Positions 48,226 to 63,453 of a stretch of DNA of 64,000 nt are shown in pieces. The stretch spans positions 13,335 to 77,334 of the forward strand of contig CAYMQG010000080.1 in the NCBI GenBank assembly GCA_964392625.1. Direction: 5' to 3'. The notes beneath the pieces were generated by a model, which saw nothing but the letters and a program-made list of their open reading frames with translations, was not told the origin of the DNA and did no database searches. The translations under genes were made by a program, and so were the position numbers. How positions within the stretch are numbered: position 1 is the stretch's first letter; each line of letters opens with the position of its first letter. The stretch is from an uncultured Gammaproteobacteria bacterium. GTDB taxonomy: Bacteria; Pseudomonadota; Gammaproteobacteria; Steroidobacterales; Foliamicaceae.

Positions 48226-49323
48226 TCAGGGCCAGTCGCGCGAAACGCTGACGAAGGACCCCCTGGACTGCGAGGCCATCAGCCAGTAGTAGCCGGTGGC
48301 GGCCGGATCCCCGTCCATCGGGTAGAACAGCACATTGACCGGAATCCCCGAGGGCAGATCGCGCACCGCGCGGGTAAAGAACCGTTCGCGCGCCCGCGTA
48401 TCCACCCATCCGACGCGCGAGGGAGGGCTGGCGCCCTGCGTCGGCAGTCCGTCGGTCAGCAGGTACACGTTGTCCGGCAACGGCTGCATCGCGCGTATCG
48501 CGCGCATCGCCGCATGCAGGCTGGTACCGCCCCTCGGCGCGAACTCGCGCAAGGCCTCGATCGCTTCGGTCACCCGCGCACCGTCGGCGACGCTGAGCCA
48601 CTCCCCGTCCGTGCCCTCAAGAATGCTCCTGTGTTCCACCCCGAAGATATAGACCTGAAAACGCTGCTGCGGCTCCAGGCGCGTGGTGATCCAGTCGACC
48701 GAATTCACGACCTGGACCCACTTCGGGGCGCGGGGTTTGAGTTCCTCTTCCATCAGGCGAAAGCGCAACACGTCGATATAGGTGCGCCCCAGCATGCTTG
48801 CGGACGCATCCACGAGGATCATTACCCGGTCGCCGCCCATCTGCATGCCGGTCAGGTATTGCCGCGCGCCCTCGCCCTCGAAACCGCGCACGCGCTGCCC
48901 CGCTCCTTCCTCCGCCTCGGCGACCCGCGCCTCAAGTTCCTGCTGCATTTCCCTGAGCCGGTCCACGTCGGCCCGCAGCTTCTCTACCGACTCCTGGCTC
49001 TGCGTCCCCAGGCGCTCGTATTCCGCCAGTTCGGCCAGCAACGCGGCAAGCCGTTCGCGCAGCTTTCTCAGCTCCTCGATGGCCGTTGCGCGGCGCTCGT
49101 CGAGCGTATCGCGCTCACCCCGCAACTGCAGCAGGTCCTTTCGCCCCTCCAGGACCTCCTCTTCGAGGCGCGTGGACTCGCTGAGCAGATCGATACGCTC
49201 GGCGTCCGCCCGCAAGCGCACCTGGGCGTTGATGATCACGAAGAACAGCACGACCGCGCCGAAGCCGCAGGAAATGATGTCCAGAAACGACATGCTGAAT
49301 ACGTGAAAGCGCCTACGAGCCAT
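48226..49323 (-). CDS. ExbD/TolR/MotB-like TM(Asp) - coiled coil - von Willebrand factor A (vWA) protein
   Basis: The N-terminus MARRRFHVFSMSFLDIISCGFGAVVLFFVI has a basic cytoplasmic tip and an Asp at the start of the single TM, as in ExbD, TolR and MotB. About 110-120 aa of heptad-rich charged helix follow. The vWA domain has an intact MIDAS (VMILVDASAS ... GGTSL ... VYLLTDG). The start overlaps the upstream gene by 11 nt. Confidence 0.75.
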   Translation of the reverse strand: MARRRFHVFSMSFLDIISCGFGAVVLFFVIINAQVRLRADAERIDLLSESTRLEEEVLEGRKDLLQLRGERDTLDERRATAIEELRKLRERLAALLAELAEYERLGTQSQESVEKLRADVDRLREMQQELEARVAEAEEGAGQRVRGFEGEGARQYLTGMQMGGDRVMILVDASASMLGRTYIDVLRFRLMEEELKPRAPKWVQVVNSVDWITTRLEPQQRFQVYIFGVEHRSILEGTDGEWLSVADGARVTEAIEALREFAPRGGTSLHAAMRAIRAMQPLPDNVYLLTDGLPTQGASPPSRVGWVDTRARERFFTRAVRDLPSGIPVNVLFYPMDGDPAATGYYWLMASQSRGSFVSVSRDWP

Positions 49324-50725
49324 CGCCGCCCACCTCGCGCGTGATCAGGAACTCCAGCGGCCCCACGCCCACCACGTCCCCCCCGCGCAATGGCGCCGAA
49401 TCCGCCACCGGCGCGCCATTCAGGTTGGTTCCGTAACGGCTGTGGTCATGCAAAACCGCCTGTCCATTCTCCAGCACCACGGTGCAGTGGTGTCGTGAAA
49501 TTCCACCTTCCGGCGAGAGCACGATCGACAGGCCCCCGGACTGCGGAGACGAGCCGAGATGCAGGCCTTCAGCGCCTATCCGCCAGGCCCGGCCGCCGAA
49601 CACGACGTGCGTCGGCGTCCGTTCTCCCCCTTCCCCGTCGCCGCCGGCAGGCGGCGCAACTCCATCCGGCCGGGAAATTCGCCCCGTGTCCGGCCCGCCG
49701 GGCAAGTCGAGGGCCGGCAAGGACGTAAGCAGCACATAGCGATCCCTCGCTCCCGACGCAGGACCGAAACGCTCCAGCGCGCCCAGCGCCGCGGCGCCCG
49801 CCGGCAGGACCTGGACCTCGGCGGCGAGCAGGCGAGCGAACACGTCGGCGCAGCCGGGAACCTCGGCGAGGACCCCCGACAGGTATATGTCCGCTGCCTC
49901 GGGGCCCGTGCACCACGATCGCATGCGATTCCCCGCCCCCCCCAACAGCCGCTCGACCGAGACAAGAAAGTCATCGCGGCTCAGGATCGCAGTGGCGGTT
50001 ACGGGCGCCGCTTCAAGTTGGGCCCTGAGCTCGCCGCCGGTCAGGACAGCCTGAAGCCATGAGTCCAATCGGTCGGCCAGTTCCTGTTCGGTGGCGGGCA
50101 GATCCAATGGATCAAAACGGGAACCCGCCACGAACCGGCCGGCAACGTAGCCGGTCATGGCCGCTCGGAGGTGACGCAGTCCCGGGCGGCCGTCGTACAG
50201 AATCTCCTCGCGCCGGATTCGGCCGTCGCGCGGCATGAGCCGGGAAACCGCCAAACGCTCGGGGGTAGCTTCAATGTGCAGGCAGGCGCGGCCCGCCGCC
50301 GCGCCCCGCACCGCGGCCACCCCGCTTTCGACCAGCCCGGCCACCGGCAGCCCGGCTTCCTCGGCGATGCCCAGCAGCAGTGCAAGGCGGTCTTCCGCAA
50401 CGCCCGGCGGAATGACCAGCACCACACCGCTTATGTCTCCCACGGATTGCCGAAAGCGCTCCCACAGCCCCTGCATTTGCCCGTGGGCCAGGTCGGCATA
50501 GCTGCGATATCCCCGCGCCGGCCTGGGCAGGGGCTCATCCGACAGCATTTCCCAGTAATTGCGGTAACTGCGCGCGGGGTCGCGCCGCGCCTCTTCGGCC
50601 GCTTCCCGTCCGAACGCCACCCGGCGCTTTTGCACCAGCGCCACGCCCGGCTCGTTGAACAGCACTCCGGCGGCGGTAGCGCCTACCAGCGCCGCTCCAT
50701 TGACTTCCAGCGCGACCAGCGCCAT
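49313..50725 (-). CDS. Hsp70/actin-fold (degenerate ATPase motifs) protein with C-terminal FHA domain
   Basis: The N-terminal roughly 340 aa align by eye to the DnaK NBD (VVLVIPPGVAEDRLALLLGIAEEAGLPVAGLVESGVAAV vs [37 protein letters not shown]), but the phosphate-1/2 motifs are lost. The C-terminal FHA reads GGISRHHCTVVLENGQAVLHDHSRYGTNLNGAPV...GDVVGVG. No signal peptide. Confidence 0.7.
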   Translation of the reverse strand: MALVALEVNGAALVGATAAGVLFNEPGVALVQKRRVAFGREAAEEARRDPARSYRNYWEMLSDEPLPRPARGYRSYADLAHGQMQGLWERFRQSVGDISGVVLVIPPGVAEDRLALLLGIAEEAGLPVAGLVESGVAAVRGAAAGRACLHIEATPERLAVSRLMPRDGRIRREEILYDGRPGLRHLRAAMTGYVAGRFVAGSRFDPLDLPATEQELADRLDSWLQAVLTGGELRAQLEAAPVTATAILSRDDFLVSVERLLGGAGNRMRSWCTGPEAADIYLSGVLAEVPGCADVFARLLAAEVQVLPAGAAALGALERFGPASGARDRYVLLTSLPALDLPGGPDTGRISRPDGVAPPAGGDGEGGERTPTHVVFGGRAWRIGAEGLHLGSSPQSGGLSIVLSPEGGISRHHCTVVLENGQAVLHDHSRYGTNLNGAPVADSAPLRGGDVVGVGPLEFLITREVGGDGS

Positions 50726-50741: not shown

Positions 50742-51539
50742 TCAGTCGCCCTGCAGGCGGCGGATCAGCCGTTCGTCGCAGTAATCCGAGGTCTCGAAGA
50801 CCAGTCGCTCCTGCAACAACTGAAGCTGGTGGACCAGGAACATGATGAAAATGCTGACCAGCAGGGCAAAGAAGGTGGAATTGAAGGCCACGCCGAGGCT
50901 CTCGGTAACGCCGCTGATGTCGCCTTCCACGGCCCGATAGGCAAGCGTCAGCGCCTGGCCGATCCCGCGCACGGTGCCGATAAAGCCGATCGAGGGGATC
51001 GCCCAGGCGATGTATCGGATCATCGACAGTTCGGATTCCAGTCGCTCGGCTTCGGCGTTGACCAGCGTCTGTGTAGCCGAAGAGACGTCCTGCACATTGC
51101 CCGTGGCGCCGAAGCGCTGCAGCGCGCTGAGCAATACGCGCGGCAACAGCAGGCGTTGCTGCGATTCGGGCAGCGCACGCAATTGGCGCGCGTGCTCGCG
51201 CGTGTCCTCGGGCAGTATGCGCACGCCTTCCGCCAACGGCAGCAGATCGCGCTGCAGCAGCGAGCGCTCGCGCAGCGCCCCACGCGCCTTGTAGCCCATG
51301 ATCGCCAGCGCCCAGAGCGCCAGGATCAGGCAGGCCTCCTGCTCGAAGTCGCGCACGATCACGTACAGCGAGCGTTCGGGCACGTACTCGGCGTCCTGTT
51401 CCAGCAGTATCCGCTGCTCTTCCATGACCGCGTTGGCCTGCGGTCGGATCCAGGCCACGTACATCGCATGCACCAGGATCACCGACAGGAACAGCGAAAA
51501 AAGCTGAAAAACGAATTCGACCGGTAACTGTCTTCTCAT
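50742..51539 (-). CDS. MotA/TolQ/ExbB proton-channel family protein
   Basis: 265 aa. Two N-terminal TMs, a cytoplasmic insert, then the family core IRYIAWAIPSIGFIGTVRGIGQAL ... GVAFNSTFFALLVSIFIMFLVHQL (conserved Pro-x-x-G-x-x-GT and the last TM). Confidence 0.8.
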   Translation of the reverse strand: MRRQLPVEFVFQLFSLFLSVILVHAMYVAWIRPQANAVMEEQRILLEQDAEYVPERSLYVIVRDFEQEACLILALWALAIMGYKARGALRERSLLQRDLLPLAEGVRILPEDTREHARQLRALPESQQRLLLPRVLLSALQRFGATGNVQDVSSATQTLVNAEAERLESELSMIRYIAWAIPSIGFIGTVRGIGQALTLAYRAVEGDISGVTESLGVAFNSTFFALLVSIFIMFLVHQLQLLQERLVFETSDYCDERLIRRLQGD

Positions 51540-51546
51540 CGATTGC

Positions 51547-52065
51547 TCACTGGTGTCGCGGGGGGCGGGGCGTCAGGACACGCCGAAGATATGCGCTGCC
51601 CTCGTCCCAGCCCTTCGTGTGCGGCGACTCGGGAAACTCCAGCTCGGCCACCGCGCAGGTAGGGAACTTTCCGTAGAGCACCGCGAAAGCCTCCTCTTCG
51701 CCTTGGCCGGCCAGGTACAGCGCCAGTTCCTGCAGGGCGGGATTATGGCCCACCACCATGATGTCGCCGGTGCCCTCCGGCAGTGCGTGCAGGCACTGCA
51801 GCACGGTTCCCGGACTGAAGGTGTACAGCCGTCGCATGACCTCGATGCTGAGGTCGGCGGGAAGGCTGGGCAGGACACCGCACAGCGTCTCCACCGCCCT
51901 GCGTCCGGCGGAACACAGGATTCTCTCGGGGGCGCATCCCACGGCCGCCAGTTTCTCTCCCATCGCGGGCGCATTCTTCCGGCCCCTGGGGGCCAGCGCC
52001 CGGTCGAAATCGTCGGCGGAATACGGCCCCGCCTTGGCATGACGCAACAGCCACAGGCGCTTCAT
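51547..52065 (-). CDS. sixA: SixA-type histidine-phosphatase-superfamily protein
   Basis: MKRLWLLRHAKA (RHG/RHA catalytic motif) ... MVVGHNPAL. 172 aa from the ATG at 52065. The stop lies only 7 nt before the MotA-like start. The 1026-aa track ORF containing it is otherwise antisense to ppk. Confidence 0.8.
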   Translation of the reverse strand: MKRLWLLRHAKAGPYSADDFDRALAPRGRKNAPAMGEKLAAVGCAPERILCSAGRRAVETLCGVLPSLPADLSIEVMRRLYTFSPGTVLQCLHALPEGTGDIMVVGHNPALQELALYLAGQGEEEAFAVLYGKFPTCAVAELEFPESPHTKGWDEGSAYLRRVLTPRPPRHQ

Positions 52066-52167
52066 GACGGAACGAGGGGGGCGCGCCCTCCTCTCCAGGA
52101 ATTGCTCATAACTCCTGTATGCTACTCCGATCATGGGGCACATTCCACGCCATCCCGGAACACGCAA

Positions 52168-54375
52168 ATGACGCCCGCGTCCGCCAAGCCGCGAGCGTTG
52201 AGCGAGGTGGAACGCGTCGCCGGCCGCCTGATCAACCGCGAGCTGTCCTGGCTGGAATTCAACACGCGGGTGCTGGAGGAAGCCGGCAACGAAAACCACC
52301 CGCTGCTGGAGCGCGTGCGGTTTCTGTCCATCTCCGCCAGCAACCTCGACGAGTTCTACATGGTGCGCGCGGCCGGGCTCATGGCCCAGGTGGCGGCAGG
52401 CGTCACAAAGACCAGTGCCGACGGGCTGACCCCCGGCGAACAGCTCGAAGCCATACGCGAACAGGTAAAGAGGCTTCTCAAGGCCCAGTCCGGGCGCAGC
52501 GCGCAGTTGCTGGCCGAATGCCGCGAGGCCGGGGTGGCGGTGGTAAAGCCCGAGGAACTGGGCAAGCAGGCCCGTGAGTGGCTGTCGCGATGGTTCGAGA
52601 ACCAGTTGTTTCCGGTGCTGACTCCCCAGGCGGTCGATACGGCGCACCCCTTCCCCTTCATTCAGACCGGCTGCCTGGTGTACGTGCTGCGGCTGATGCG
52701 GCCCGCGGACAAGCACGAGATCAACGGCCTGGTCCTTGTCCCCCCGCAGATCGAGCGGTTCGTGCGTGTTCCCGGCAAGGCCCTGCGCTTCGTCGCCGTC
52801 GAGGAAATCATCGCCCGCAACTTCAGGCTGCTGTTCCCCGGAATGAAGATCCTGGGCCACGGCATCTTCCGCATCAGCCGCGACAGCGACCTTGAAATCG
52901 ACGAAGAAGCCGAGGACCTGGTACGGACCTTCGAGACCGCCCTGCTGCGGCGCCGCAGAGGCAACGTCATACGGGTGGAAGTGGCGGCCGGCATGCCGAA
53001 GAACTTCCGCCGGTTCGTTCTCAAGGCGTTCAACGCCTCGCACGCGCATGTCTTCAACATCGACGGCATGCTGGGGCTGGCGGACATCAAGCAGATCATC
53101 ACGGACCAGCGCCGCGACCTGCAGCACGAGCCGCTCAACGTGCGCTTCCCCGAACGGGTACGCGAGTATGGAGGCGACATTCTCGCCGCCATACGCGCCA
53201 AGGACTTCGTCGTGCAGCATCCGTACGAGAGCTTCGACGTGGTCGTGCAGTTCCTGCGCCGCGCCACCGACGACCCGGCGGTCGTGGCCATCAAGCAGAC
53301 CCTTTACCGCACTTCCGAGGACTCGCCGATCGTCGAGGCGCTGATCGCCGCCGCCGAGGCCGGCAAGCTGGTCACCGCCATGGTCGAGCTTCGGGCGCGT
53401 TTCGACGAAGCGGCGAACATCCGCTGGGCGCAGGAGATGGAGCGCGCCGGCGTGCAGGTCGTCTACGGCTTCATGGAACTCAAGACCCACGCCAAGGTAT
53501 CGCTGGTGGTGCGCAGGGAAGCGGGCGAATTGCGGACCTATACGCACTTCGGCACCGGCAACTACCATCCGGTCAACGCGCGCGTCTATTCGGACCTGAG
53601 CTTCTTTACCTGCGACGCGGCCCTGGGGCGCGACACCGCGCGCCTGTTCAATTACATGACAGGCTACGCGACGCCCGAGGACATGGAAAAGCTGGTTTAC
53701 GCGCCGGCTCAGATGAAAAGCAGCCTGGTCGAGTTGATCGAGGAGGAAGTCGTCCATGCCCGCGCCGGGCGTCCGGCGGAGATCTGGGCCAAGCTCAACT
53801 CGCTCGTGGACCCCGAGATCATCGACTGTCTCTACCGGGCGAGCCAGGCCGGGGTGCGGATCGAACTCTACGTCCGGGGGATTTGCTGCCTGCGCCCGGG
53901 CGTACCCGGCATGTCTGAGAACATCCAGGTGCGCAGCATGGTCGGCAGGTTCCTGGAGCACTCGCGCGTCATGTGTTTCGGCGCCGGCCACCAGCTTCCT
54001 TCCACAGAGAGCAAGGTTTACGTATCGTCCGCCGACTGGATGCCCCGCAACCTGCATCATCGCGTGGAGACACTGGTGCCGATCGAGAACGAGACGGTCA
54101 AGCGGCAGCTCGTGGAGCAGGTCCTGATGGCGAACCGCTTCGACGTGATGCAGAGCTGGCAACTCGGACCCGACGGCGCTTACCGCCGCCTTGACCATCA
54201 ATCGGGCGATTTCAGCGCCCACACCTGGTTCATGACCAATCCGAGCCTTTCCGGCCGCGGCAGCGCCCTGCGGGAGTCGCGTCCGGCCATGCCCGGCGAA
54301 CTGTTTCCCGAGACCGGGGGGCCCACCGCCGCGGAAGACGAACCCCGCCCGACACTGGTCAAAGCCGCCGTCTGA
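52168..54375 (+). CDS. ppk: Polyphosphate kinase 1
   Basis: INRELSWLEFNTRVLEEA...PLLERVRFLSISASNLDEFYMVR, the autophosphorylated-His region ELKTHAKVSLVVRRE, and two PLD-like HKD-type C-terminal domains. ATG at 52168. The upstream 205 codons of the track ORF are rejected. Confidence 0.95.
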   Translation: MTPASAKPRALSEVERVAGRLINRELSWLEFNTRVLEEAGNENHPLLERVRFLSISASNLDEFYMVRAAGLMAQVAAGVTKTSADGLTPGEQLEAIREQVKRLLKAQSGRSAQLLAECREAGVAVVKPEELGKQAREWLSRWFENQLFPVLTPQAVDTAHPFPFIQTGCLVYVLRLMRPADKHEINGLVLVPPQIERFVRVPGKALRFVAVEEIIARNFRLLFPGMKILGHGIFRISRDSDLEIDEEAEDLVRTFETALLRRRRGNVIRVEVAAGMPKNFRRFVLKAFNASHAHVFNIDGMLGLADIKQIITDQRRDLQHEPLNVRFPERVREYGGDILAAIRAKDFVVQHPYESFDVVVQFLRRATDDPAVVAIKQTLYRTSEDSPIVEALIAAAEAGKLVTAMVELRARFDEAANIRWAQEMERAGVQVVYGFMELKTHAKVSLVVRREAGELRTYTHFGTGNYHPVNARVYSDLSFFTCDAALGRDTARLFNYMTGYATPEDMEKLVYAPAQMKSSLVELIEEEVVHARAGRPAEIWAKLNSLVDPEIIDCLYRASQAGVRIELYVRGICCLRPGVPGMSENIQVRSMVGRFLEHSRVMCFGAGHQLPSTESKVYVSSADWMPRNLHHRVETLVPIENETVKRQLVEQVLMANRFDVMQSWQLGPDGAYRRLDHQSGDFSAHTWFMTNPSLSGRGSALRESRPAMPGELFPETGGPTAAEDEPRPTLVKAAV

Positions 54376-54381
54376 CAGCCA

Positions 54382-55875
54382 GTGCCGGGCGTATTGCGAA
54401 CCAGCCCCGCGACCCCAAGCGAGGCGCCGGTAGCCGTGATCGACATAGGCTCGAACTCCGTTCGCCTGGTCGTCTACGAAAACGGCGGGCGGGCGCCCCT
54501 GCCGATATTCAACGAAAAGGTCCTGTGCGGGCTCGGCCGCGGGCTGGACCGGACCGGCAGAATGCCCGGGGACGGTATCCGCCTGGCCCTGGAGAGCCTC
54601 CACCGGTTCGCCCGCCTGTGCCCGCAAATGGGCGTTCTTGAAGTGCAGGCGGTCGCGACCGCGGCGGTCCGGGAGGCGAGTAACGGGCCGGAGTTCCTCG
54701 ATACCGTGCGCTCCGAATGCGGCCTGGATGTCCGCTTGTTGACGGGCAACCGGGAAGCCGAGGTGTCTGCCGGCGGAGTCCTGAGCGCAATTCCCCGGGC
54801 GAGCGGCGTTGCGGCCGACCTGGGCGGCGCCAGCCTGGAACTGACGCTCCTGGACAACGGGAGTGTGGCGGAGCGCGTTTCACTGCCGCTGGGCACGGTG
54901 CGCGGAAACGGCGAGGTGTCCATCGGGGAAAGCCGGGAGACCATTCGGGGCCAGCTTGACGGGTTGGACTGGCTGCCGCGGGCGCGCGGACAGTCCCTGT
55001 ACCTGGTAGGAGGCTCCTGGCGGGCATTGGCCCGAATCCACATGGACGAATCCGGCTACCCGCTGCATGTCATACATCACTACGCGCTGGAGGCCGCCGA
55101 CGCTTCGGAATTCTGCGGGATGCTGGCCGACTGGCCCCGCACGCGCCTGGAATCGGCCAAGGGACTGCGGGCCGACCGGCTGGAGTCCCTGCCCTTTGCG
55201 GCGGTCGCCCTGCAATCCGTGCTGGAGCGCAGCGGCGCCGAGCGGGTCGTGTTTTCCGCCAACGGCCTGCGCGAAGGCTGCCTGTACGAAGCCCTGACGC
55301 CGCTTGAACAGCAGATAGATCCCCTGCTGTGGCTGTGCGAGAGCGCTGCCCGGCGCATGGGCCGCGGGGGCTCGGGCGGCGACCTTCTGGCCGGGTGGAT
55401 CGCGCCGGCGCTGGAAGGACTGGTGCCTGACAAGCTCAGGCTGGCTGCCTGCCACCTGTCCGACATCGGCTGGTCCGAACATCCCGACTACCGGGCCGAG
55501 CAGGTATTCCTGCGCATATTGCGCATGCCGCTGACCGGCGCCGATCACCGCGAACGAATCATGCTCGGCCTGGCCGTCGCATCGCGCCACGCCGCCATCA
55601 CCCCGACACTGAAGCGCCTGGGCCTCGGCACGCTCGTCGACAAGAAAGAGAAGCGCCAGGCAGTCTGTATCGGCCTGGCCATGAGGCTTGCCTACACGAT
55701 TTCCGGCGGGGCCGTCAGCGTCCTTGAGCAATTCCGCCTGCAGCGGAAACCGGAAGAACTCGTGCTGACGGCGCCGGAAGGCGCCCACATCCTGGTCGGG
55801 AACACGGTCCAGCGCCGCTTGCGCGTCCTGGCGGAAAGGCTCGACCTCGACTATCGGATCCGTCTGCGCGCCTGA
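54382..55875 (+). CDS. ppx: Exopolyphosphatase (Ppx/GppA family)
   Basis: VAVIDIGSNSVRLVVYE, DLGGASLELT and LVGGSWRALAR motifs of the ASKHA-fold Ppx/GppA. GTG start 6 nt after the ppk stop. Confidence 0.92.
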   Translation: MPGVLRTSPATPSEAPVAVIDIGSNSVRLVVYENGGRAPLPIFNEKVLCGLGRGLDRTGRMPGDGIRLALESLHRFARLCPQMGVLEVQAVATAAVREASNGPEFLDTVRSECGLDVRLLTGNREAEVSAGGVLSAIPRASGVAADLGGASLELTLLDNGSVAERVSLPLGTVRGNGEVSIGESRETIRGQLDGLDWLPRARGQSLYLVGGSWRALARIHMDESGYPLHVIHHYALEAADASEFCGMLADWPRTRLESAKGLRADRLESLPFAAVALQSVLERSGAERVVFSANGLREGCLYEALTPLEQQIDPLLWLCESAARRMGRGGSGGDLLAGWIAPALEGLVPDKLRLAACHLSDIGWSEHPDYRAEQVFLRILRMPLTGADHRERIMLGLAVASRHAAITPTLKRLGLGTLVDKKEKRQAVCIGLAMRLAYTISGGAVSVLEQFRLQRKPEELVLTAPEGAHILVGNTVQRRLRVLAERLDLDYRIRLRA

Positions 55876-55887
55876 CGGTACGGCGCG

Positions 55888-56259
55888 CTAAATATCGGTT
55901 GGCCACACTACCGGGTTGTCGGCCGACAGGGGCTCCGAAGGCGTGAACTCCTCCAGCACCTCATCGCTGCCCAGCGCCTCCTCGATGCGGGCCAGGTCTT
56001 CCTCGATCGAGGTCACCTCCGTGGACAGCTCTTCCTCCACGGGAGATCCGTCTTCTCCCCGGGCCGGCGCATCGGCCGGAGTTGCATTGGAGGGCGGGAT
56101 GCTCTCCCGCCCAGCGGGCACGCCCTCGTTGTCGGGCGCCGCGTCCTCTGCGGTCCTGTCCTGCTGCGCGAGCCCCAGCCATCCGCCCACACGTTCGGCG
56201 GCCCAGGTCAGGCCAACGGCCAGGCCGATAACGGCGACAACTGCGACGACCTTCTTCAT
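55888..56259 (-). CDS. Small N-terminally anchored/secreted acidic protein (hypothetical)
   Basis: MKKVVAVVAVIGLAVGLTWAA followed by a Pro/Asp/Glu-rich tail (…EEELSTEVTSIEEDLARIEEALGSDEVLEEF…). The ATG at 56259 forms an ATGA overlap with the stop of the FGE-domain gene. Confidence 0.6.
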   Translation of the reverse strand: MKKVVAVVAVIGLAVGLTWAAERVGGWLGLAQQDRTAEDAAPDNEGVPAGRESIPPSNATPADAPARGEDGSPVEEELSTEVTSIEEDLARIEEALGSDEVLEEFTPSEPLSADNPVVWPTDI

Positions 56260-58676
56260 TCGGGTTCCTGCAACTCGGCGTAGCGCGCCAGGCGAAATCC
56301 TACATCGAGCCTCTCCTCCTCGCCAAAATCGCGGAACGCCCAGCGCAGTTCGCGCAGCGTCCCGTGCAGCCAGCCCGAACCGCGGATCACGTAAAAACGC
56401 CCCTCCTGCGGACCGCGCGGGTCCACCTCGAAGCCGGGATAAAGCGTATCGGTGCCGTAGTAATCGCCCGTCCACTCGGCCACGTTGCCGCCAAGATCGT
56501 AGAAGCCCAGCGGGTTGGCCGGAAACGAACCGACCGGGGCCGTGAAGGGAAAGAAGTCGTTGTAGGCGCTCAGCACGTTGGTGACGAGGCTGCCGGCCGA
56601 CTGGTCCGCGTAGTTGCCGGAGCGTGCCGGAGGAGGCATGCGCTCACCCCAGGGATAGCGCGAATTCCCCGCGCCGCCCCGGTAGCGGGCCGCCCAGACC
56701 CACTCCGCCTCGGTCGGCAGGCGATAGCCGGTCCCCGGCTCGGTCACCGGAATCAGCCGGCCGGAACGGCTCTGATACTGAAGCGGCAGGTTTTCCTGCG
56801 AACTCAGCCAGTTGCAGAAGGCCGCGGCGGCCTGCCAATCGACGTTCACCGCGGGGCTGCTGTCGGCCGCCAACGAACGGAAGCGCTCGGCCCCGGAGGT
56901 GTGGTTGGGAATGAAAGCGCGAAATTCCCGGTTGGTGACTTCCTTGACGCCCAGGTAGTAGCGTTTCGTGAGCCTCACCCTGCGGCGCACCTCGTTGTTG
57001 CGCCATCCCTGCGAACCGCGCTGCGATCCCATCTCGAACTCGCCGGGGAACAGCATGACCATTGACGCTCCCTGCGACGTTTCGATTTCCGTGGGCTGGG
57101 CGGCCAGCATCTGCTGCCGCGGCGTCAGGAGTTCCACTTCCACCTCCTGCGGATAGGCGGGCTGCGGAACGACCTCGCGCGACTGCGCCACGTAGCCTTC
57201 CAGGCTGAATTCGAGCTGTTGCTCGGTTGAAGGCAATTGAAGGTCCAGCGGGGTCCGACCGGCTGGCTGTCCGTTGACGCTGACCTGCGCTCCGGACGGA
57301 CGGCTCAACAGGCGAATGGTACCCAGACGCGGCTCGAGACGAATGGTCAGGGACTGCTCGGCGCCCCGACCCAGCGTCACCGTGCGTTCCTGCGACTCGT
57401 AGCCCGCCCGGGCCACCACCACGCGGTGCGCCCGGTCCGGGCTCACCTCCACGGTCGCAGGCGATCCTCCGCGAAAGTCCCCGTCCACGGTAATGCTGGC
57501 GCCCGGCGGGTCCGTCCGCACGCGAAGCACGCCTGCGGCAGGTTGCAGGCGGATGACGGGCAGGACCTGCGGCGAGCCGGCAACCACGGTCAGCCGTTCG
57601 CGATGCGTGGCGAATCCCGGCCTGGAGAACGACAGCATGCGTTCGCCGGACAGCAATTCCACGGTTGCCGGAGTTGTTCCCAGGACCTGTCCTTCCGATC
57701 GCAATTCAGCCCCCGGCGGATCGCTGCTGGCGAGGACCTCCGCCCAGTCCGGCTCCAGTTCGGCTCTGAACGGCTCCAGGTCGCCGCCGCCCTCCACGGC
57801 CAGCGCAATGCTCAGGTCCTTGTAGCGGAGCGCGCTTACGCTCAGGGCGTAAGTGCCCGGGCTCAGCGAGATTTCCTCGCCGGGGGAAAACACCTGGTCC
57901 ACGCCCTCGATACGAATCTCCGCGCCGGCCACGGCATCCACGACCACCCGTCCGGGCAAAAGCCGCATCGCGAAGCGAAATTCCTGACTGCCTTCGCCCC
58001 CCACCTCGATCTCTTCGTCCAGCGGGTAATAACGTTCCCGTTCAGCCCTGACCCGGTACCGGCCTTTCCAGAGAAGATAGCGGGACCCCACGTGCGGAGT
58101 GGGCAGCAGCGCGTCAACCTCAACGGCAACGTCGGCGGGCTCCACTTCAATCAGCACGCCTTCCGCGGTAAACACGAAGACGGCGCTGACGCCCAGCAGC
58201 GCCAGCAGCACGCCTGCCGCCAGGCGCAACCACAGGCGGCCCTTGTGCGCCGGCACGGAGCGCGAATCTCCGGCAGGCCGGCGAACCGCTATTTCGGCCG
58301 TGGCGTCTTCGTCGTCGGCCAGTTCGGGCGGCCTCGTGTCCCAGGCCTGCGCCAGGTAGCTCACATTCAGGCGCATAGCTTCGGGCGAAAGCGAGTCCAC
58401 CGTTACCTCCGCTCCGGCAATGGCGAGCCGATCGCCTTCCTCCAGCCACTGTGCGCCGCTGATCGGCTCGCCGTTCAGCAGAAGGCCGGAAATGCCCGGA
58501 TAGCACTGCACCAGGGCCCGGTCGTCGAGGAGATTGATGCTGGCCGCCGGAGGCGCGCCGGCCGGGCCGGGGAGGCGAATATGCGCGCCCGCGCCGCTGC
58601 CCAGCAGCACGGGCAGCTTGTCCGCCGCGAGCGTGCGCTCGCCCTCGGGCAGCACGAGAACCACATCACGCGCCAT
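56256..58676 (-). CDS. FHA-like N-terminal domain - TM - multiple PEGA domains - C-terminal FGE/SUMF1 (formylglycine-generating-enzyme-like) domain protein
   Basis: 806 aa. The N-terminal roughly 100 aa are beta-rich and FHA-like (LLNGEPISGAQWLEEGDRLAIAGAEVTV), but the canonical SRxH is not evident. TM is LWLRLAAGVLLALLGVSAVFVF. Repeated PEGA-type units are present (e.g. LRVRTDPPGASITVDGDFRGGSPATVEV). The C-terminus carries FGE-sulfatase motifs (YRLPTEAEWVWAAR, GNVAEWTGDYY, RGSGW). Confidence 0.8.
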   Translation of the reverse strand: MARDVVLVLPEGERTLAADKLPVLLGSGAGAHIRLPGPAGAPPAASINLLDDRALVQCYPGISGLLLNGEPISGAQWLEEGDRLAIAGAEVTVDSLSPEAMRLNVSYLAQAWDTRPPELADDEDATAEIAVRRPAGDSRSVPAHKGRLWLRLAAGVLLALLGVSAVFVFTAEGVLIEVEPADVAVEVDALLPTPHVGSRYLLWKGRYRVRAERERYYPLDEEIEVGGEGSQEFRFAMRLLPGRVVVDAVAGAEIRIEGVDQVFSPGEEISLSPGTYALSVSALRYKDLSIALAVEGGGDLEPFRAELEPDWAEVLASSDPPGAELRSEGQVLGTTPATVELLSGERMLSFSRPGFATHRERLTVVAGSPQVLPVIRLQPAAGVLRVRTDPPGASITVDGDFRGGSPATVEVSPDRAHRVVVARAGYESQERTVTLGRGAEQSLTIRLEPRLGTIRLLSRPSGAQVSVNGQPAGRTPLDLQLPSTEQQLEFSLEGYVAQSREVVPQPAYPQEVEVELLTPRQQMLAAQPTEIETSQGASMVMLFPGEFEMGSQRGSQGWRNNEVRRRVRLTKRYYLGVKEVTNREFRAFIPNHTSGAERFRSLAADSSPAVNVDWQAAAAFCNWLSSQENLPLQYQSRSGRLIPVTEPGTGYRLPTEAEWVWAARYRGGAGNSRYPWGERMPPPARSGNYADQSAGSLVTNVLSAYNDFFPFTAPVGSFPANPLGFYDLGGNVAEWTGDYYGTDTLYPGFEVDPRGPQEGRFYVIRGSGWLHGTLRELRWAFRDFGEEERLDVGFRLARYAELQEPE

Positions 58677-58693
58677 GTTTCACGCCCCCCGCG

Positions 58694-61006
58694 TCAGATG
58701 GGATCCGTGCAGACCAGAACCAACGGCTCCGGCAGTCCTTCCGGCTCCACGACGAACTCGCGGCGCACGTCACGAAAGCCGTCACGGGTCCCGACGGCGG
58801 TGTAGGCGCCGGGGCGTAGCTCAAGCATGCGACTGTCGAAACTTCCCAGGCGGCCAACGTGAAAAATGGTCACTTCGGTGAGACCGTCGGAACGCAGCCA
58901 CACCGGCGCCGGCGTGGCTGCCACCGCCAGGGCCTGCTCGAGGCGGCCGATCTGCCCGTTAAGGCGCGCGCCCGGACCGGGAATGGCCGCGGCTTCGTCC
59001 AGCAGCCGTTTGCCGCGCTGCCAGGCATCGTCCCGGTTCAACGTCCGGGCGTTCGCGATGGTGGTTTCCAATGCATCGTCCAGCCGCGCACGCCCCTCGG
59101 CCTCCGCCAGCCCGCGTTGCGCTGCGACGATGTTCGAGTCGATCTCAAGCATGCCGCGGTAATTGGCGGCCGCCCTGGGCCAGTCTTCCGCGAACCTGCC
59201 CGCCATCGCGGCCGCCTGGAACTGCGCCAGCCGCTGCCCGCGTTCCTCCAGTTCCAGCGCGGCAAGCGCTTCGACCGGCCCGGGATCGTTCGGACGCTGT
59301 TTCCGTGCGGCCTCGAACGCAGTCCGGGCCGCTTCGACATCGCCCTCTCCCAGCGCCGCATGACCGCGCGACATTCGCGAGTTGAACAGTTGCTGATCGA
59401 TCCGGGCATTGACCGTCGACAACTCCCTGCGGGCGGACTGCCGTTCCGGGTCGACCTTGAGCACCGCCTGCCAGGCGGCCCGCTGCTCCTCCAGGCTGCC
59501 TTCCCGCGCGCTGGCCCGCGCTTCGGCCACGGCCTGCATGGTTTCCGGCAGCCGGGCGGCCCGGCGGGACGCGGACTGCACCTCCGGATCGCTCGCTCCG
59601 AGAAGAATGCCGGCCTTTTCGAGTTCCGCCAGAGCACCGGCCTGATCGCCCGATTCGATAGCCTGCAGGGCTTCTTCCAGGGCCCCGCGGCCAATATCGG
59701 GAGCCTCTTCCCGCAGTTGGCGCAGCATCTCCGCCGCCTTTCCGTATGCGCCCTGCGCGTCCGGATATTCGCGCCTGCGATAGAAATCGTCCCCTTTCCG
59801 CTCCTCGGCCATGGCCTGCTCCCAGGCCCCGCCCGACCACATGGAGGGCTGCAGGGCCGCCAGGTAATTTCGGTCCTGCAGCATATCGCCCATGGCCTCA
59901 TCGGCCGCCTCGCGCTGCATTCTCAGCAGCTGCATGTCCTGGCGGGGCGCCTCGGCCTCCTGGATGATGCGTTCGGGCGGAGGACGCCTGCTTGCGCGTT
60001 CTTCCGCGAAGCGCGGCGCCGCGAAAAACAGGACCGCGGCCGCCGCCAGCAGGAGTCCGCCCAATGCATAAGCCACCCACAGCGGCACGCCGGAACTGCG
60101 TTGCAACGCCGGCGGCGCACCGCCGGGGTCGCCGGCGCCGGCTCGAGCTCGCGCGACAATGGCGGCGGCCTGTGACGGGCCTTCGGCGGTGGCGGATTCT
60201 GCCAGTATCTCTTCCAGGGCTGCACGCACGGCCGCCATGGTCACCGGCCTCAGGGCTTCGTCCCGCGCGAGCATCGCGGTAACCAGTTCGGCCAGCTCAT
60301 CGGGAAGCTGCGGCCGCCCTTCGGGGGCGGCGGGAGCTGCCAGCTCCGTGCTGCGAATGGCCTCTTCGCTGATGTCCGGCGCGAATGGCGGATAGCCGCA
60401 CAACAACTCGTAGATGACGCAACCCAGCCCATACACGTCGTCGCTGGTCCGGGCGGAGCGGCCCTCAAGCCGTTGCGGGCTCATATAGGCCAGCGAGCCT
60501 CCGGGACGCCGGACACGCCCGTCGTCGGCATCCGGCAGCACTGCGGCGCCGAAGTCCGTCAGGCAGGCGGCGCCCGACTCGTCCAGCAAAATGTTCTGCG
60601 GCTTGATGTCGCCATGCACCACGCCTTTGCGGTGCGCGTACGCCAGGGCGTCGCAAACCGGCAGCAGGCGCCTCGCGGCGTCGTTCCAGGGTTCGCCGGA
60701 CCGCTCTCCTACATGACCGCCCGGCAGGACGGGCATGGTGAAGAAATGGCTGTTGCCGTCGGAAACGAACTCCTCCGGGCGCACGACGGCCGGATGGACC
60801 AGCGACTGGGCAACGGAGAACTCGCGCCGGAAGCGGTCGATACGCGCCGGATGCCGGGCATATTCATCCGCCAGCAACTTCAGGGCCACTTCACGGCCTT
60901 CCCGCATATCTTCCGCAAGCCACACCTCGCCCAGCCCGCCGGAGCCCAGCGGGCGGACCAGGCGGAACCGATCCGCCAGCATCTCGCCTTGCCTTTTTTG
61001 GGTCAT
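58694..61006 (-). CDS. Transmembrane Hanks-type Ser/Thr protein kinase with periplasmic TPR-like region and C-terminal PEGA-like domain
   Basis: Gly-loop LGSGGLGEVW, VALK lysine, catalytic HGDIKPQNILL, DFG, and activation segment ...YMSPQRL. TM is LWVAYALGGLLLAAAAVLFFAAP. A long helical-repeat ectodomain follows. The C-terminus is EVTIFHVGRLGSFDSRMLELRPGAYTAVGTRDGFRDV. Confidence 0.88.
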   Translation of the reverse strand: MTQKRQGEMLADRFRLVRPLGSGGLGEVWLAEDMREGREVALKLLADEYARHPARIDRFRREFSVAQSLVHPAVVRPEEFVSDGNSHFFTMPVLPGGHVGERSGEPWNDAARRLLPVCDALAYAHRKGVVHGDIKPQNILLDESGAACLTDFGAAVLPDADDGRVRRPGGSLAYMSPQRLEGRSARTSDDVYGLGCVIYELLCGYPPFAPDISEEAIRSTELAAPAAPEGRPQLPDELAELVTAMLARDEALRPVTMAAVRAALEEILAESATAEGPSQAAAIVARARAGAGDPGGAPPALQRSSGVPLWVAYALGGLLLAAAAVLFFAAPRFAEERASRRPPPERIIQEAEAPRQDMQLLRMQREAADEAMGDMLQDRNYLAALQPSMWSGGAWEQAMAEERKGDDFYRRREYPDAQGAYGKAAEMLRQLREEAPDIGRGALEEALQAIESGDQAGALAELEKAGILLGASDPEVQSASRRAARLPETMQAVAEARASAREGSLEEQRAAWQAVLKVDPERQSARRELSTVNARIDQQLFNSRMSRGHAALGEGDVEAARTAFEAARKQRPNDPGPVEALAALELEERGQRLAQFQAAAMAGRFAEDWPRAAANYRGMLEIDSNIVAAQRGLAEAEGRARLDDALETTIANARTLNRDDAWQRGKRLLDEAAAIPGPGARLNGQIGRLEQALAVAATPAPVWLRSDGLTEVTIFHVGRLGSFDSRMLELRPGAYTAVGTRDGFRDVRREFVVEPEGLPEPLVLVCTDPI

Positions 61007-61084: not shown

Positions 61085-62314
61085 TCAGGGGCGCGACAGG
61101 GACGTGCCCTCAGGCTCTTGCGCACCCGGCGTTTCAAGGTCGCCGGTCTCGCGGGCGTAGATGTCCCGCAACAGGCGGCGCCATTCACGAAACCTCTCCT
61201 CGGCGGATCCGGTCAAACGGCGGGTCTGACCTTCGAGCTCCACCACCATGGGCTCGGCCTCGGCATCGAAGGATTCGCCCACTTCGCGCAGCGCCTCGGC
61301 GTGCATCCTGGCTTCCTCGCGCCGCCCCAGGCTTCCCTGAATTCCCATGAAGCCCCCCTGGATCATGGTGCCTGTCACGCCCATGTTGTCGCCGCCGCTG
61401 GCTTCGTACGCGACAGCGCCCAGAATCCCGAGGACTCCGAGCAGCATGCGCGTATTCGCCGACCTGCGCATTTCCTCGTAACTCAGGCGGCCTTCCCGGG
61501 CCATCCGCCGCCAGTCGGTGTAGGGCCGGTCCAGCCCGTAGTAGAGGTTGGCGTAATGCTCGTTGACGGCGTCTATCAACGCGTATTCCCGCTCCCGCAC
61601 CTCGCGCATGCGGGCGACCATGGGATCGTCGGCAGCCGGCAGGCGCCTGACCTCGTACTGCCCGTCGCCGGTCTCTTCCAGATAGCCGCTGAAAGCCTGC
61701 GGCACGAGGCTCTGCCCGTAGCGCAGGTCGCTGATCTCGCGCACGCGCTGCAAATCGCCGGGACTGAACTGCGCGCGCGCCTGCAGCAGGTCGTTGGCGA
61801 TCTGGTTATAGATGTTCTGGTAGGGATCCTGACCGGGGCCGGTGTTGCGAATGTATGCCTGCTCCGCAACCAGCATTTCATAGTTCTTTTCGAACCACTG
61901 GCGGCCGGACGAGTCCCAGGCGCCGACACGCAGCTGCGCGCTATAGCCGTCCGATTGGTTGATCCTGCCCGAAATCACGACATCCGCAACCGGACTGTAT
62001 TCGGGAAGGACGCTTACCGCTCCCCAATAGCCGGTAGTCTCAAGCGTGCTCTTGAGGTGGTACGGCATGTAGCGCGCTTCGGCGCGGCGAATCTCGGGAA
62101 AGATGAAGCGGTCGTTGAGTTCCTGATCGCTCGCCTCTTCGGGCAGCCCCGCATCAAACACCAGGATGCCGACGTTCAGCAGCGATTCCGATGCAATTTC
62201 GGTCTCCGCGCGCTGCAGCCCCACCTGGGTGTACTGGACCTCGCGCGCGGACGTGCAGGCGCCCAGCACAATGATGCAGGCGGCCAGACCGAGAGTCGTG
62301 ATCGACCGGTTCAT
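61085..62314 (-). CDS. Lipoprotein of unknown function with a C-proximal glycine-zipper segment
   Basis: The ATG at 62314 gives MNRSITTLGLAACIIVLGACTS (lipobox). The later segment LLGVLGILGAVAYEASGGDNMGVTGTMIQGGFMGIQG resembles glycine-zipper membrane hairpins. ATGA overlap with the upstream gene's stop. Confidence 0.65.
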   Translation of the reverse strand: MNRSITTLGLAACIIVLGACTSAREVQYTQVGLQRAETEIASESLLNVGILVFDAGLPEEASDQELNDRFIFPEIRRAEARYMPYHLKSTLETTGYWGAVSVLPEYSPVADVVISGRINQSDGYSAQLRVGAWDSSGRQWFEKNYEMLVAEQAYIRNTGPGQDPYQNIYNQIANDLLQARAQFSPGDLQRVREISDLRYGQSLVPQAFSGYLEETGDGQYEVRRLPAADDPMVARMREVREREYALIDAVNEHYANLYYGLDRPYTDWRRMAREGRLSYEEMRRSANTRMLLGVLGILGAVAYEASGGDNMGVTGTMIQGGFMGIQGSLGRREEARMHAEALREVGESFDAEAEPMVVELEGQTRRLTGSAEERFREWRRLLRDIYARETGDLETPGAQEPEGTSLSRP

Positions 62315-63453
62315 TTTGTTTTCAACCCCATGTGCTTGCGATATTCGTCCCACAATGCCTCGCGTATGCGGGGGTCTTCTTCCTGCTCCGCCGCTTCGCG
62401 AATCTGCCGCGCCACCTGGTCCTCCTTGCCGGTAACCTCCGCAATATCTTCCGGAATCTCGATCTTCGTCTCCGGCTGCTCGCCGGGCGAGCCGTCTTCC
62501 GTCGGCCCGCCTTCTCCTTCGCCTCCGCCGGAGCCGCCACCGCTTCCGGAACTGCTTCCGCCTGCGCTGCTGCCGTCCGATTCGCTGCCCGGGCTTTGGC
62601 CGTCACCGCCAAGACCCCCGCCGCTCGCGTTGGGGATAGTCACCATAGCCCCGCCGGAGCCGCCGGACTCGCCGATCATTCCGCCCGTGCCTCCGGAACC
62701 GGCGGCGGACCCCTGTCCGGCCGATGCCATGGCGCCACGCTCACGGGCAATTTCGCGGTCGTAACCCTCCATGGATTCACGCAGGATTCCCTCGAGGTCG
62801 CCACTGCCTTGTGTGCCGCCTGCACCTCCTCTGCCGCCGGGCTCGCTACCCTGCCCGCCTCCGAAGCCACCGCCGACTCCCGTGGAACCGGCCTGCTGAC
62901 CTCCGGAACCGCCCGGCCGGCCCGAAGGCCCGCCCGCCGAACCGCTGGCGCCTCCCATGGAACCCATGGAACCCTGGGCGCCGCCCTGCGATCCCATCGA
63001 GCCCATCGAACCTCGCGAACCGCCTGGTGTTCCCATGGAGCCACCCATGGAGCCCATCGAACCGCCGGCTGAACCCATCGAACCCCGCGATCCACCGGTT
63101 GAACCCATCGAGCCCATGGAACCGCCGGACGAGCCCATTGAGCCCCCCATCGAACCGCGAGAACCGCCGGAAGAGCCCATCGAACCGCCCATGGAGCCAC
63201 GCGAGCCCCCGGAGGAACCCATGGACCCTTGCGAACCGCCCATGGAACCCTGAGAACCGCCCATGGAGCCCTGCGAACCGCCCATGGAGCCCTGCGAGCC
63301 CCCGGAGGACCCCGAACTGCCGCTGGGCGAAGGCATCGAAACCGGGGGGCCGCCGGACGGCGAGGAAACGCCTCCGGTGGTCTGGCAATTCGCCAGAACC
63401 AGCACTGCGGAGAGCGCCATACAAAAGCCTGAAATACGCACTGTTGCTTTCAT
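62311..63453 (-). CDS. Lipoprotein with extreme Gly/Ser/Met-rich tandem repeats and a conserved-looking charged C-terminus
   Basis: The ATG at 63453 gives MKATVRISGFCMALSAVLVLANCQ (lipobox). Roughly 125 aa of (G-S-M-G / GGSQ / GGSR) repeats follow, then a second Gly/Ser/Asp-rich tract. The C-terminus is EDIAEVTGKEDQVARQIREAAEQEEDPRIREALWDEYRKHMG. Confidence 0.65.
   Translation of the reverse strand: MKATVRISGFCMALSAVLVLANCQTTGGVSSPSGGPPVSMPSPSGSSGSSGGSQGSMGGSQGSMGGSQGSMGGSQGSMGSSGGSRGSMGGSMGSSGGSRGSMGGSMGSSGGSMGSMGSTGGSRGSMGSAGGSMGSMGGSMGTPGGSRGSMGSMGSQGGAQGSMGSMGGASGSAGGPSGRPGGSGGQQAGSTGVGGGFGGGQGSEPGGRGGAGGTQGSGDLEGILRESMEGYDREIARERGAMASAGQGSAAGSGGTGGMIGESGGSGGAMVTIPNASGGGLGGDGQSPGSESDGSSAGGSSSGSGGGSGGGEGEGGPTEDGSPGEQPETKIEIPEDIAEVTGKEDQVARQIREAAEQEEDPRIREALWDEYRKHMGLKTK
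62947..63327. repeat. Imperfect in-frame tandem repeat (9-nt periodicity, higher-order 18-33 nt units) encoding the GSM-rich tract
   Basis: The plus strand shows reiterated cat(g/c)ga(a/g)cc(n) units, e.g. catggaacccatggaaccctgggcgccgccctgcgatcccatcgagcccatcgaacctcgcgaaccgcc... This generates spurious ORFs in several frames on both strands (62724..63485, 62846..63424, 62957..63253). Confidence 0.85.

Follow-up and report, generated by a model that had tools for sequence, protein, structure and literature searches.

What does a Ser/Thr kinase serve when it is encoded directly beside a protein ending in a formylglycine-generating enzyme (FGE) fold, and do the two make up, with a small acidic protein, a system of their own? 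The question is raised by three adjacent genes in a stretch of 64,000 nucleotides (nt) of contig CAYMQG010000080.1 (assembly GCA_964392625.1, positions 13,335 to 77,334) from an uncultured gammaproteobacterium of the Foliamicaceae; this whole stretch is referred to as the window. The original prediction, made from the letters of the window, had read the three genes as an operon for phosphothreonine (pThr) signaling in the cell envelope. The triad was found to be the middle of a larger cluster of 8 to 10 genes that is widely conserved in Gammaproteobacteria. From the domains predicted for the cluster members, it is proposed with moderate confidence that the triad is the center of an envelope-spanning system, in which a periplasmic hub would work with a TolQ-like/von Willebrand factor A (vWA) motor and would be subject to an optional phospho-switch. 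The three genes are as follows.

58694-61006, minus strand: gene 1, kinase (KIN), open reading frame of 770 amino acids (aa)
56256-58676, minus strand: gene 2, FHA-fold/PEGA/FGE protein (FGE), open reading frame of 806 aa
55888-56259, minus strand: gene 3, small protein (SM), 123 aa within a longer open reading frame

Results

Extent of the unit in the window

The open reading frames and the junction sequences bear out the predicted arrangement of three minus-strand genes with a 17-nt gap and an ATGA overlap. Genes 1 and 2 are separated by 17 nt (...ATC TGA cgcggggggcgtgaaac ATG...), genes 2 and 3 overlap by ATGA (...GAA CCC GAATGAAGAAG...), and a GC content at third codon positions of ~0.8 favors the frames of all three. 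Its reading as a kinase-linked envelope module remains a reasonable one. The three-gene operon as a unit did not hold, since the unit comprises at least five co-directional genes in the window and 8 to 10 in relatives. In the window, the genes for two lipoproteins (GS and LP) precede the kinase gene, giving the order GS-LP-kinase-FGE-SM with an ATGA overlap at either end; the spacing from GS to SM is a 4-nt overlap, a 78-nt gap, a 17-nt gap, and a 4-nt overlap. A scan for promoters and terminators over 47 to 64 kb of the window gave nothing above chance.

Conservation in related genomes

For the survey of relatives, LP (~420 aa) was used as the marker and one genome per species was scanned. 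This gave 352 matching stretches; 80 loci were kept, and their open reading frames were annotated by phmmer. The order found almost everywhere was GS > LP > KIN > FGE > (SM) > MotA > (FHA) > VWA > VWA2, and an OmpA-like gene follows the cluster in some lineages. LP, KIN, and FGE were contiguous in 60 of the 63 loci of sufficient length, so that the three genes of the triad, whose conservation elsewhere had been put forward as a check, do recur together. Among the informative loci beyond the window's clade, 43/43 had FGE-(SM)-MotA...VWA as an unbroken stretch, the genes overlapping or being separated by small gaps; the gene 2 orthologs of these loci are only 33 to 44% identical to that of the window. 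An association of the triad with the MotA-FHA-vWA operon, which the original prediction had suggested looking for, is therefore present in every one of these loci. The triad alone was found in none of the 80. It was deduced that the unit is larger than the triad because co-occurrence with the MotA-FHA-vWA genes was strongly positive in the relatives.

Gene 2 homologs that share its architecture fell into a close clade that is 70 to 92% identical, including one Candidatus Foliamicus, and a few distant ones that are 33 to 39% identical. The distant loci consist of contiguous and co-directional genes for a G/S/A-rich protein, a ~430-aa protein, the kinase, the PEGA-FGE protein, the small protein, a MotA_ExbB protein, an FHA protein, a VWA protein, a VWA paralog, and an OmpA protein. 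The Foliamicus genome resembles the window in that its small-protein and MotA genes are separated by ppx, ppk, and a SixA-like gene. The carriers are labeled as Woeseia/Woeseiaceae, Lentisalinibacter, Steroidobacteraceae, Chromatiales, Lysobacterales, and unclassified Gammaproteobacteria. Literature searches yielded no description of the combined cluster; each of its elements has a known relative, and it is the combination for which no published description was found.

Co-variation of the kinase domain with other parts of the cluster

The major data that tie the two halves of the cluster together came from loci in which the kinase domain is missing. In 16 of the 75 orthologs of the "kinase" gene, the product is ~500 aa long and has no kinase domain, while the transmembrane (TM) segment, the tetratricopeptide repeats (TPRs), and the C-terminal beta domain are kept. 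Such kinase-less orthologs were found in L046, L048-L064, L083, and L086. Among the loci scorable for both, the kinase domain and the FHA gene were both present in 36 and both absent in 13, and no locus was discordant. The VWA gene of the 13 double-absent loci follows MotA at a distance of 12 to 103 nt; L086 is a further kinase-less and FHA-less locus. A linker motif of gene 2, T-[LARQI]-P-P (T114 in the window), was present in all loci with a kinase domain and missing in the kinase-less loci, which keep the FHA-like domain and the PEGA/FGE part of gene 2, SM, LP, GS, and the motor genes. On a rough neighbor-joining tree of LP, parsimony requires at least three changes for the kinase-less state.

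The FHA gene encodes an Hsp70-like-FHA protein. Since the FHA gene occurs in just those scored loci that have the kinase domain, its product would be a better candidate for the reader of pThr than gene 2. As phospho-acceptor, the best candidate seen in these proteins is the invariant T114 in gene 2's T-x-P-P linker, a suggestion that we regard as doubtful.

Gene 1

Residues 15 to 260 of gene 1 were assigned to Pfam Pkinase (PF00069; E=6.6e-40, 137.6 bits versus a cutoff of 31.7), in agreement with the earlier kinase call. The motifs on which that call was based are all intact, namely, VALK (beta3 Lys), HGDIKPQN (HxD Asp and catalytic-loop Asn), and DFG. As judged from these motifs, the protein is a Hanks-type Ser/Thr kinase with intact catalytic residues, and it is of the non-RD type because Gly replaces the Arg of HRD in its HGD. 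A single TM segment (residues 305 to 334) makes the protein bitopic with a cytoplasmic kinase domain. For the periplasmic region, which had been described as a domain of helical repeats, the Pfam matches to TPRs were weak; a profile of 31 orthologs matched TPR proteins in the PDB with E=2.5e-27. The last ~75 residues (~696 to 770) are the best-conserved part of the protein. A terminal PEGA-like domain had been proposed there, and hhalign aligned this C terminus to the PEGA repeats of gene 2 with 91 to 95% probability. Pfam gave no PEGA match in the C terminus, and it is called only PEGA-like because the alignment spans just ~39 columns.

The FHA fold of gene 2

Gene 2 has one TM segment (residues 147 to 178) with Lys/Arg on its N-terminal side. 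The deduced order is a cytoplasmic FHA fold (residues 1 to ~100), a linker with T114-R-P-P, the TM segment, PEGA repeats (172 to 519), and an FGE domain (537 to 798). All three folds had been named in the original prediction, and all three held, PEGA and FGE by Pfam and the FHA fold by profile, hhalign, and AlphaFold2 data. PEGA (PF08308) was matched over three stretches (E=2.3e-39, 133.5 bits versus a cutoff of 20.8), and hhalign resolved residues 172 to 519 into five PEGA-type repeats, mutually related at 97 to 99% probability. The N terminus was not called FHA by Pfam. A profile of 30 orthologs of this region matched the FHA domains of Ki-67 (E=4.4e-6), KIF13B (6e-5), and Rv1747 and FhaA (3e-4) in the PDB, and hhalign related it to the FHA domain of the neighboring FHA proteins with 93% probability. 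The AlphaFold2 model of the region (pLDDT, the model's own confidence score, 80) has eleven strands, and the top 50 Foldseek matches in the PDB were all FHA domains.

Of the FHA signature (G-R, S-x-x-H, N), only the Gly of the five residues is kept in gene 2. The consensus of its FHA-like domain is IG[ST]...A.I..LD.R.F.Q....NGE....WL.DGD, where A.I replaces S..H and there is no S-x-N-G loop. The domain is also kept in the clusters whose "kinase" gene is without a kinase domain. Because the binding residues are missing and the domain persists without the kinase domain, it is unlikely that the FHA fold of gene 2 reads pThr. A 16-aa tandem duplication (LPDGDRILTADELPI) opens the FHA-like domain of gene 2 in the Foliamicus genome (L011:14088-14180). 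The window's gene 2 protein had no identical sequence on record in an exact-sequence look-up.

These data bear directly on the reading of the triad as an autonomous operon, in which gene 2's own FHA-like domain would bind pThr and the proteins would also meet via their PEGA domains. Such an operon would account for the confirmed FHA fold of gene 2, the intact kinase motifs, the PEGA-type domains in both proteins, and the tight linkage of the genes. It would also fit the fusions that were found, Pkinase+PEGA+FGE (P0061) and Pkinase+FGE (P0060 and P0066), as the fused P0061 adjoins the gene for an extracytoplasmic function (ECF) sigma factor and not a motor cluster. Contact between FHA and pThr through gene 2 is nevertheless contradicted by the replaced signature and by the persistence of the domain in kinase-less clusters, and the triad never stands alone in the related loci. 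An autonomous operon is therefore considered rather unlikely.

The FGE domain of gene 2

The FGE-sulfatase domain (PF03781) of gene 2 was unequivocal as a fold (residues 537 to 798; E=5e-43, 148 bits versus a cutoff of 23.3), and human FGE (1y1e) matched residues 537 to 771 with E=3.6e-17. The alignment with 1y1e ends with RGSGWL-H against GGSYMcH, and the catalytic Cys pair (human C336 and C341) is absent. The window's domain has a single Cys, at residue 621 (AAFCNWL), in a structural position; exactly this one Cys was found in 69/70 FGE domains (the window and 69 orthologs), and a Cys at the catalytic positions was found in 0/70. The original prediction had allowed for a formylglycine-forming enzyme and had named the two Cys as the point to check. 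Since both are missing throughout, it was concluded that the domain is not a formylglycine-generating enzyme, and this candidate was rejected. The earlier remark that no sulfatase is visible is consistent with a six-frame translation of the window, in which the sulfatase signature (pattern CxPxR) had no match.

The FGE fold could instead belong to another enzyme, such as an oxidase or maturase resembling PvdO or EgtB/OvoA, whose substrate in the periplasm could be, for example, the tail of SM. Many positions of the FGE domain are highly conserved among orthologs that are just 33 to 44% identical overall, gene 2 gave weak NCBIfam matches to PvdO, EgtB, and SenA, and the SM tail is strictly conserved and rich in Pro and Ser, all of which would suit an enzyme and its substrate. 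The NCBIfam matches are, however, all far under the family cutoffs, and a Pfam scan of gene 2 found no DinB-type iron domain beside the FGE fold. The nearest precedent, PorK, is a Cys-less FGE fold next to a motor driven by the proton motive force (PMF), and its role is structural (PMC12421860). On balance, an enzymatic function of this kind appears improbable, and a docking or binding role of the fold within a periplasmic hub is preferred.

The small protein and the lipoproteins

The description of gene 3 as a 123-aa anchored acidic protein is supported by its hydrophobic N-terminal segment and acidic body. The N terminus ends with ...LTWA/AE and is followed by a variable, acidic, low-complexity middle, which suggests that the protein is exported or membrane anchored. 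SM had no Pfam or NCBIfam match. Its conserved C-terminal tail is ...LEEFTPSEPLSADNPVVWPTDI-COOH in the window, and the consensus of the last ~22 residues is EF.PS.PL.AD....[FLWM]P[STV]DI-COOH. In at least 64/70 loci, the FGE and MotA genes have an SM-type open reading frame between them that carries this tail. The tail looks like a docking tail, for which the groove of the FGE domain and the metal ion-dependent adhesion site (MIDAS) of the vWA domain are candidate partners.

The two lipoprotein genes upstream of the kinase gene are as follows.

61085..62314, minus strand: LP, 409-aa lipoprotein with lipobox VLGAC, the marker of the system
62311..63453, minus strand: GS, Gly/Ser/Met-rich low-complexity lipoprotein with lipobox LVLANC, the first gene of the cluster

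The start of LP was fixed by P0069, which is 100% identical over 409 aa, and the ATGA overlap with the stop of GS follows from this start. In public data, LP is represented by 1841 protein clusters at 90% identity; every one bears the name "hypothetical" and none has a Pfam domain. LP has no sequence relatives in the PDB. Its AlphaFold2 model (pLDDT 72.6) has an N-terminal alpha/beta domain followed by a long helical hairpin. The best Foldseek matches were the N-terminal domain of TolB (4r40; E=5e-4) and LptE (E=1e-2); because their TM-scores are low, the likeness is taken as a lead only. The LP model, the TPRs, and the presence of an OmpA-like gene in some loci combine to lend the cluster a Tol-Pal-like cast.

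GS consists largely of tandem repeats of 7 aa of the type GSMGGSQ (21-nt period, 62933-63313). Its C-terminal helix, VARQIREAA..E.DP.LRE.LWDEYRK, is common to the very different-looking low-complexity proteins of L001 and L003, and in nearly every related locus GS is the gene directly upstream of LP.

The predicted motor genes and the insertion

In the window, the second half of the cluster is separated from the first by an insertion. The features of this region are listed below.

51547..55875, mixed strands: insertion of ~4.3 kb splitting the cluster (Pfam)
54382-55875, plus strand: ppx (Pfam)
52189-54375, plus strand: ppk (Pfam)
51547-52062, minus strand: SixA-like histidine-phosphatase-family gene (Pfam), ending 7 nt before MotA
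50742..51539, minus strand: TolQ/ExbB/MotA-family proton-channel protein (Pfam MotA_ExbB, E=1e-14)
49313..50725, minus strand: soluble Hsp70-like-FHA protein (Pfam FHA, E=2e-9)
48226..49323, minus strand: vWA protein (Pfam VWA_2 and VWA_3, each just under the curated cutoff)

No member of the cluster is better conserved than the MotA-like protein, which is 61% identical to its L001 counterpart by BLASTP. The Hsp70-like-FHA protein was assigned an N-terminal domain of the Hsp70/actin fold and a C-terminal FHA domain, as its profile matched the FHA domain of FhaA (E=6.5e-8) and the nucleotide-binding domains of DnaK/Hsp70 (E=3e-4) in the PDB. This FHA domain keeps the G, the S-R-x-H, and the later NG/GD positions.

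The vWA protein of the window starts with a TolR/ExbD-like trans-pore helix in which an Asp is conserved (FSMSFLDIISCGF); a coiled coil follows, and then a periplasmic vWA domain whose MIDAS (DASAS) is intact. Among the orthologs, the helix motif [SA]FLD[VIC] was found in 49/50, and DxSxS was found in 50/50 VWA and 48/48 VWA2 proteins. The matches listed in the search for vWA homologs were all close relatives, with at least 48% identity. No ExbD/TolR gene was found in the cluster. The window and L004 have a single vWA gene and essentially all other loci have a pair; tblastn found neither a VWA2 paralog nor an OmpA gene elsewhere in the window.

The ppx/ppk/SixA-like insertion occurs only in the window, L004-L018, and L066, a Foliamicus-like clade; elsewhere MotA directly follows SM. 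Downstream of the vWA gene are genes for an acyl-CoA dehydrogenase and a short-chain dehydrogenase/reductase (SDR), a pair that is syntenic in Lentisalinibacter as well. It could be argued from this arrangement that the triad belongs to one system and the MotA-FHA-vWA genes to another, unrelated one, in a conserved neighborhood that they share: both halves persist in the window's clade with ~4.3 kb of opposite-strand ppk/ppx between them, and the flanking SDR and acyl-CoA dehydrogenase genes are likewise syntenic over long distances. However, the halves are contiguous and co-directional in all 43 of the other loci even though gene 2 has diverged to 33 to 44% identity, and the kinase domain of the first half co-varies perfectly with the FHA gene of the second. 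Two unrelated systems are thus given little chance, and a single system comprising both halves is retained as the working interpretation.

The remainder of the window between 3919 and 46119 is ordinary chromosome, with guaA, guaB, secD, uvrB, a gene for an MscS-type channel, rpsA, aroA, genes for a 2-hydroxyacid dehydrogenase and a serC-like aminotransferase, and gyrA. Also encoded among these housekeeping genes, at 28030-29670, is a protein of 546 aa that has two PKD/Ig-like domains and is unrelated to the cluster.

Comparison with anti-phage systems

PADLOC matched the kinase domain to the kinase models of PD-T4-6 and mad6 and, weakly, the L001 OmpA-like gene to ZorB, and a Zorya-type anti-phage or conflict system combining a MotA-like motor, effectors, and kinase signaling is nonetheless very improbable, since PADLOC gave no match for MotA (which is not ZorA), LP, GS, SM, FGE, or the FHA protein, nuclease and other effector domains are absent, and the cluster sits in a housekeeping context with conserved flanks and looks vertically inherited. 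A known anti-phage defense system was likewise rejected, as the PADLOC matches are to the generic kinase only.

Discussion

Relation to known systems

The FGE/SUMF1 group is the one designated COG1262. In type VI secretion (T6SS) of Pseudomonas aeruginosa, TagR (COG1262), which works with the outer-membrane lipoprotein TagQ, acts from the periplasm to activate the kinase PpkA and then Fha1 (PMC13584744). The cluster shares with this threonine phosphorylation pathway (TagQRST-PpkA-PppA-Fha1) a bitopic Hanks kinase, an FGE-fold protein, a lipoprotein, a cytoplasmic FHA reader, and a periplasmic vWA domain. The differences are considerable. The vWA domain is found on TolR-like motor subunits here and on the kinase in the PpkA pathway; the FGE fold is carried by a bitopic FHA/PEGA protein and not by a soluble one such as TagR, to which the likeness is by description; and the cluster's FHA protein, unlike Fha1, carries an Hsp70-like domain. 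No T6SS core genes, PppA/PP2C, or TagST ABC transporter were found in the clusters of the window, L001, L003, L004, and L065.

A second precedent is found in type IX secretion (T9SS), where PorK has an FGE fold without both catalytic Cys and forms the docking hub of the outer ring that is engaged by the PorLM motor (PMC12421860). As with PorK/GldK, the cluster places a Cys-less periplasmic FGE fold beside a (here predicted) motor of the MotA/ExbB/TolQ class. PorK chains were among the PDB sequence matches of the FGE domain (E=2e-14), and GldK was the top NCBIfam match of gene 2. Gene 2 is not deduced to be a GldK ortholog because this match reached 104.6 bits versus a cutoff of 350. It also differs in topology, being an inner-membrane bitopic protein with an internal TM segment, whereas PorK/GldK is an outer-membrane lipoprotein. 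T9SS belongs to Bacteroidota, whereas the hosts here are Gammaproteobacteria, and the cluster contains no PorN, PorM, or Sov homologs.

The motor genes themselves fit a family predicted in 2025, in which a TolQ-like gene without tolR/exbD, usually with two different vWA genes, would encode a 5:2 motor with a dimeric vWA rotor (PMC12204202). The window has the corresponding TolQ-like gene beside a vWA gene with a TolR-like Asp helix and lacks tolR/exbD; it departs from the heterologous vWA pair in that the window's clade has one vWA gene. The main text of PMC12204202 contains none of the terms kinase, serine, phospho, sulfatase, formylglycine, Hsp70, and PEGA, its sole match to "FHA" is FhaC, and none of its listed passages on lipoproteins concerns these clusters.

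The association of kinases with the FGE-sulfatase domain has been catalogued ("Proteo1" family architectures; bioRxiv 10.1101/2025.01.12.632604). In the fusions of this type, named "bifunctional kinase/FGE family protein" by NCBI, the domains share one chain, whereas here they are on separate, adjacent bitopic proteins. With SUMF1/FGE the cluster shares the fold family but not the catalytic Cys pair, and the window is devoid of the sulfatase signature.

Proposed mechanism

The periplasmic hub is proposed because the invariant core of the cluster is periplasmic or membrane bound, because it travels with a predicted PMF motor, and because PorK provides a precedent. Gene 1 would contribute its TPRs and its PEGA-like C terminus to the hub, and gene 2 its five PEGA repeats and its FGE fold without the Cys pair; the tail of SM and the two lipoproteins would be further parts. 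These periplasmic parts may assemble into a hub for docking or for ligand binding and sensing, and the vWA heads would work on or with this hub, in the manner in which the Cys-less PorK/GldK is docked onto the PorLM motor. The cytoplasmic kinase domain would then add a layer of regulation that is optional. Engagement of the periplasmic sensor would lead the kinase to phosphorylate a cytoplasmic Thr; the phospho-mark would be read by the FHA domain of the Hsp70-like protein, and the assembly or the activity of the motor would be controlled in this way. The logic of such a switch would be that of TagR-PpkA-Fha1 in type VI secretion. As its output, the system could tether the envelope, mediate surface adhesion or movement, or serve export.

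Several observations weigh against an envelope-spanning hub and motor with a phospho-switch. All functional statements on the cluster members are inferred from sequence. The co-variation of the kinase domain and the FHA gene has few independent events behind it, as the kinase-less loci come from few lineages. The FHA domain of the Hsp70-like protein is without the loop Arg and Asn of the canonical signature, so that its binding of pThr is not assured. In Lentisalinibacter and relatives (L065, L069, L070, L072, and L073), VALR, HGD[VI]TARN, and DFA replace VALK, HxDxKxxN, and DFG; the in-cluster kinase is on this ground probably a pseudokinase, and the FHA gene is nonetheless retained there. 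A PP2C phosphatase was not seen in the clusters inspected (the window, L001, L003, L004, and L065). LP resembles TolB only weakly (TM-scores near 0.2). Finally, the window's clade has its halves parted by ppk/ppx, which also means that co-transcription of the cluster is lost there since these genes lie on the other strand, and it is missing VWA2.

In Lentisalinibacter and relatives, the gene for another kinase, whose product has a double zinc ribbon, lies ~6 kb upstream among genes of fatty-acid metabolism. PP2C or other partners were considered for the flanks of L065 and rejected, as only metabolism genes and this unrelated second kinase ~6 kb off were found.

Significance

Motors of the TolQ/ExbB/MotA type with 5:2 stoichiometry power flagella, Ton uptake, Tol-Pal, gliding, type IX secretion, and Zorya defense. 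The cluster might, and we put this forward only tentatively, represent a class of proton-driven envelope machine that has gone unrecognized, consisting of a TolQ-like pentamer, vWA-headed TolR-like rotors, a periplasmic hub, and a Ser/Thr-phosphorylation switch read by an Hsp70-like-FHA adaptor. If true, gating by a Hanks kinase would be known for a 5:2 motor for the first time.

For annotation, the data imply that the label "FGE/sulfatase-modifying enzyme" is misleading on proteins of the gene 2 type, which provide a further case of a catalytically dead FGE fold beside a PMF motor. For the orphan family of vWA-headed motors, the cluster gives a first conserved set of candidate partners together with a candidate regulatory input, and its carriers include the cultured Lentisalinibacter, the abundant Woeseiaceae of marine sediments, and the sponge-associated Foliamicus.

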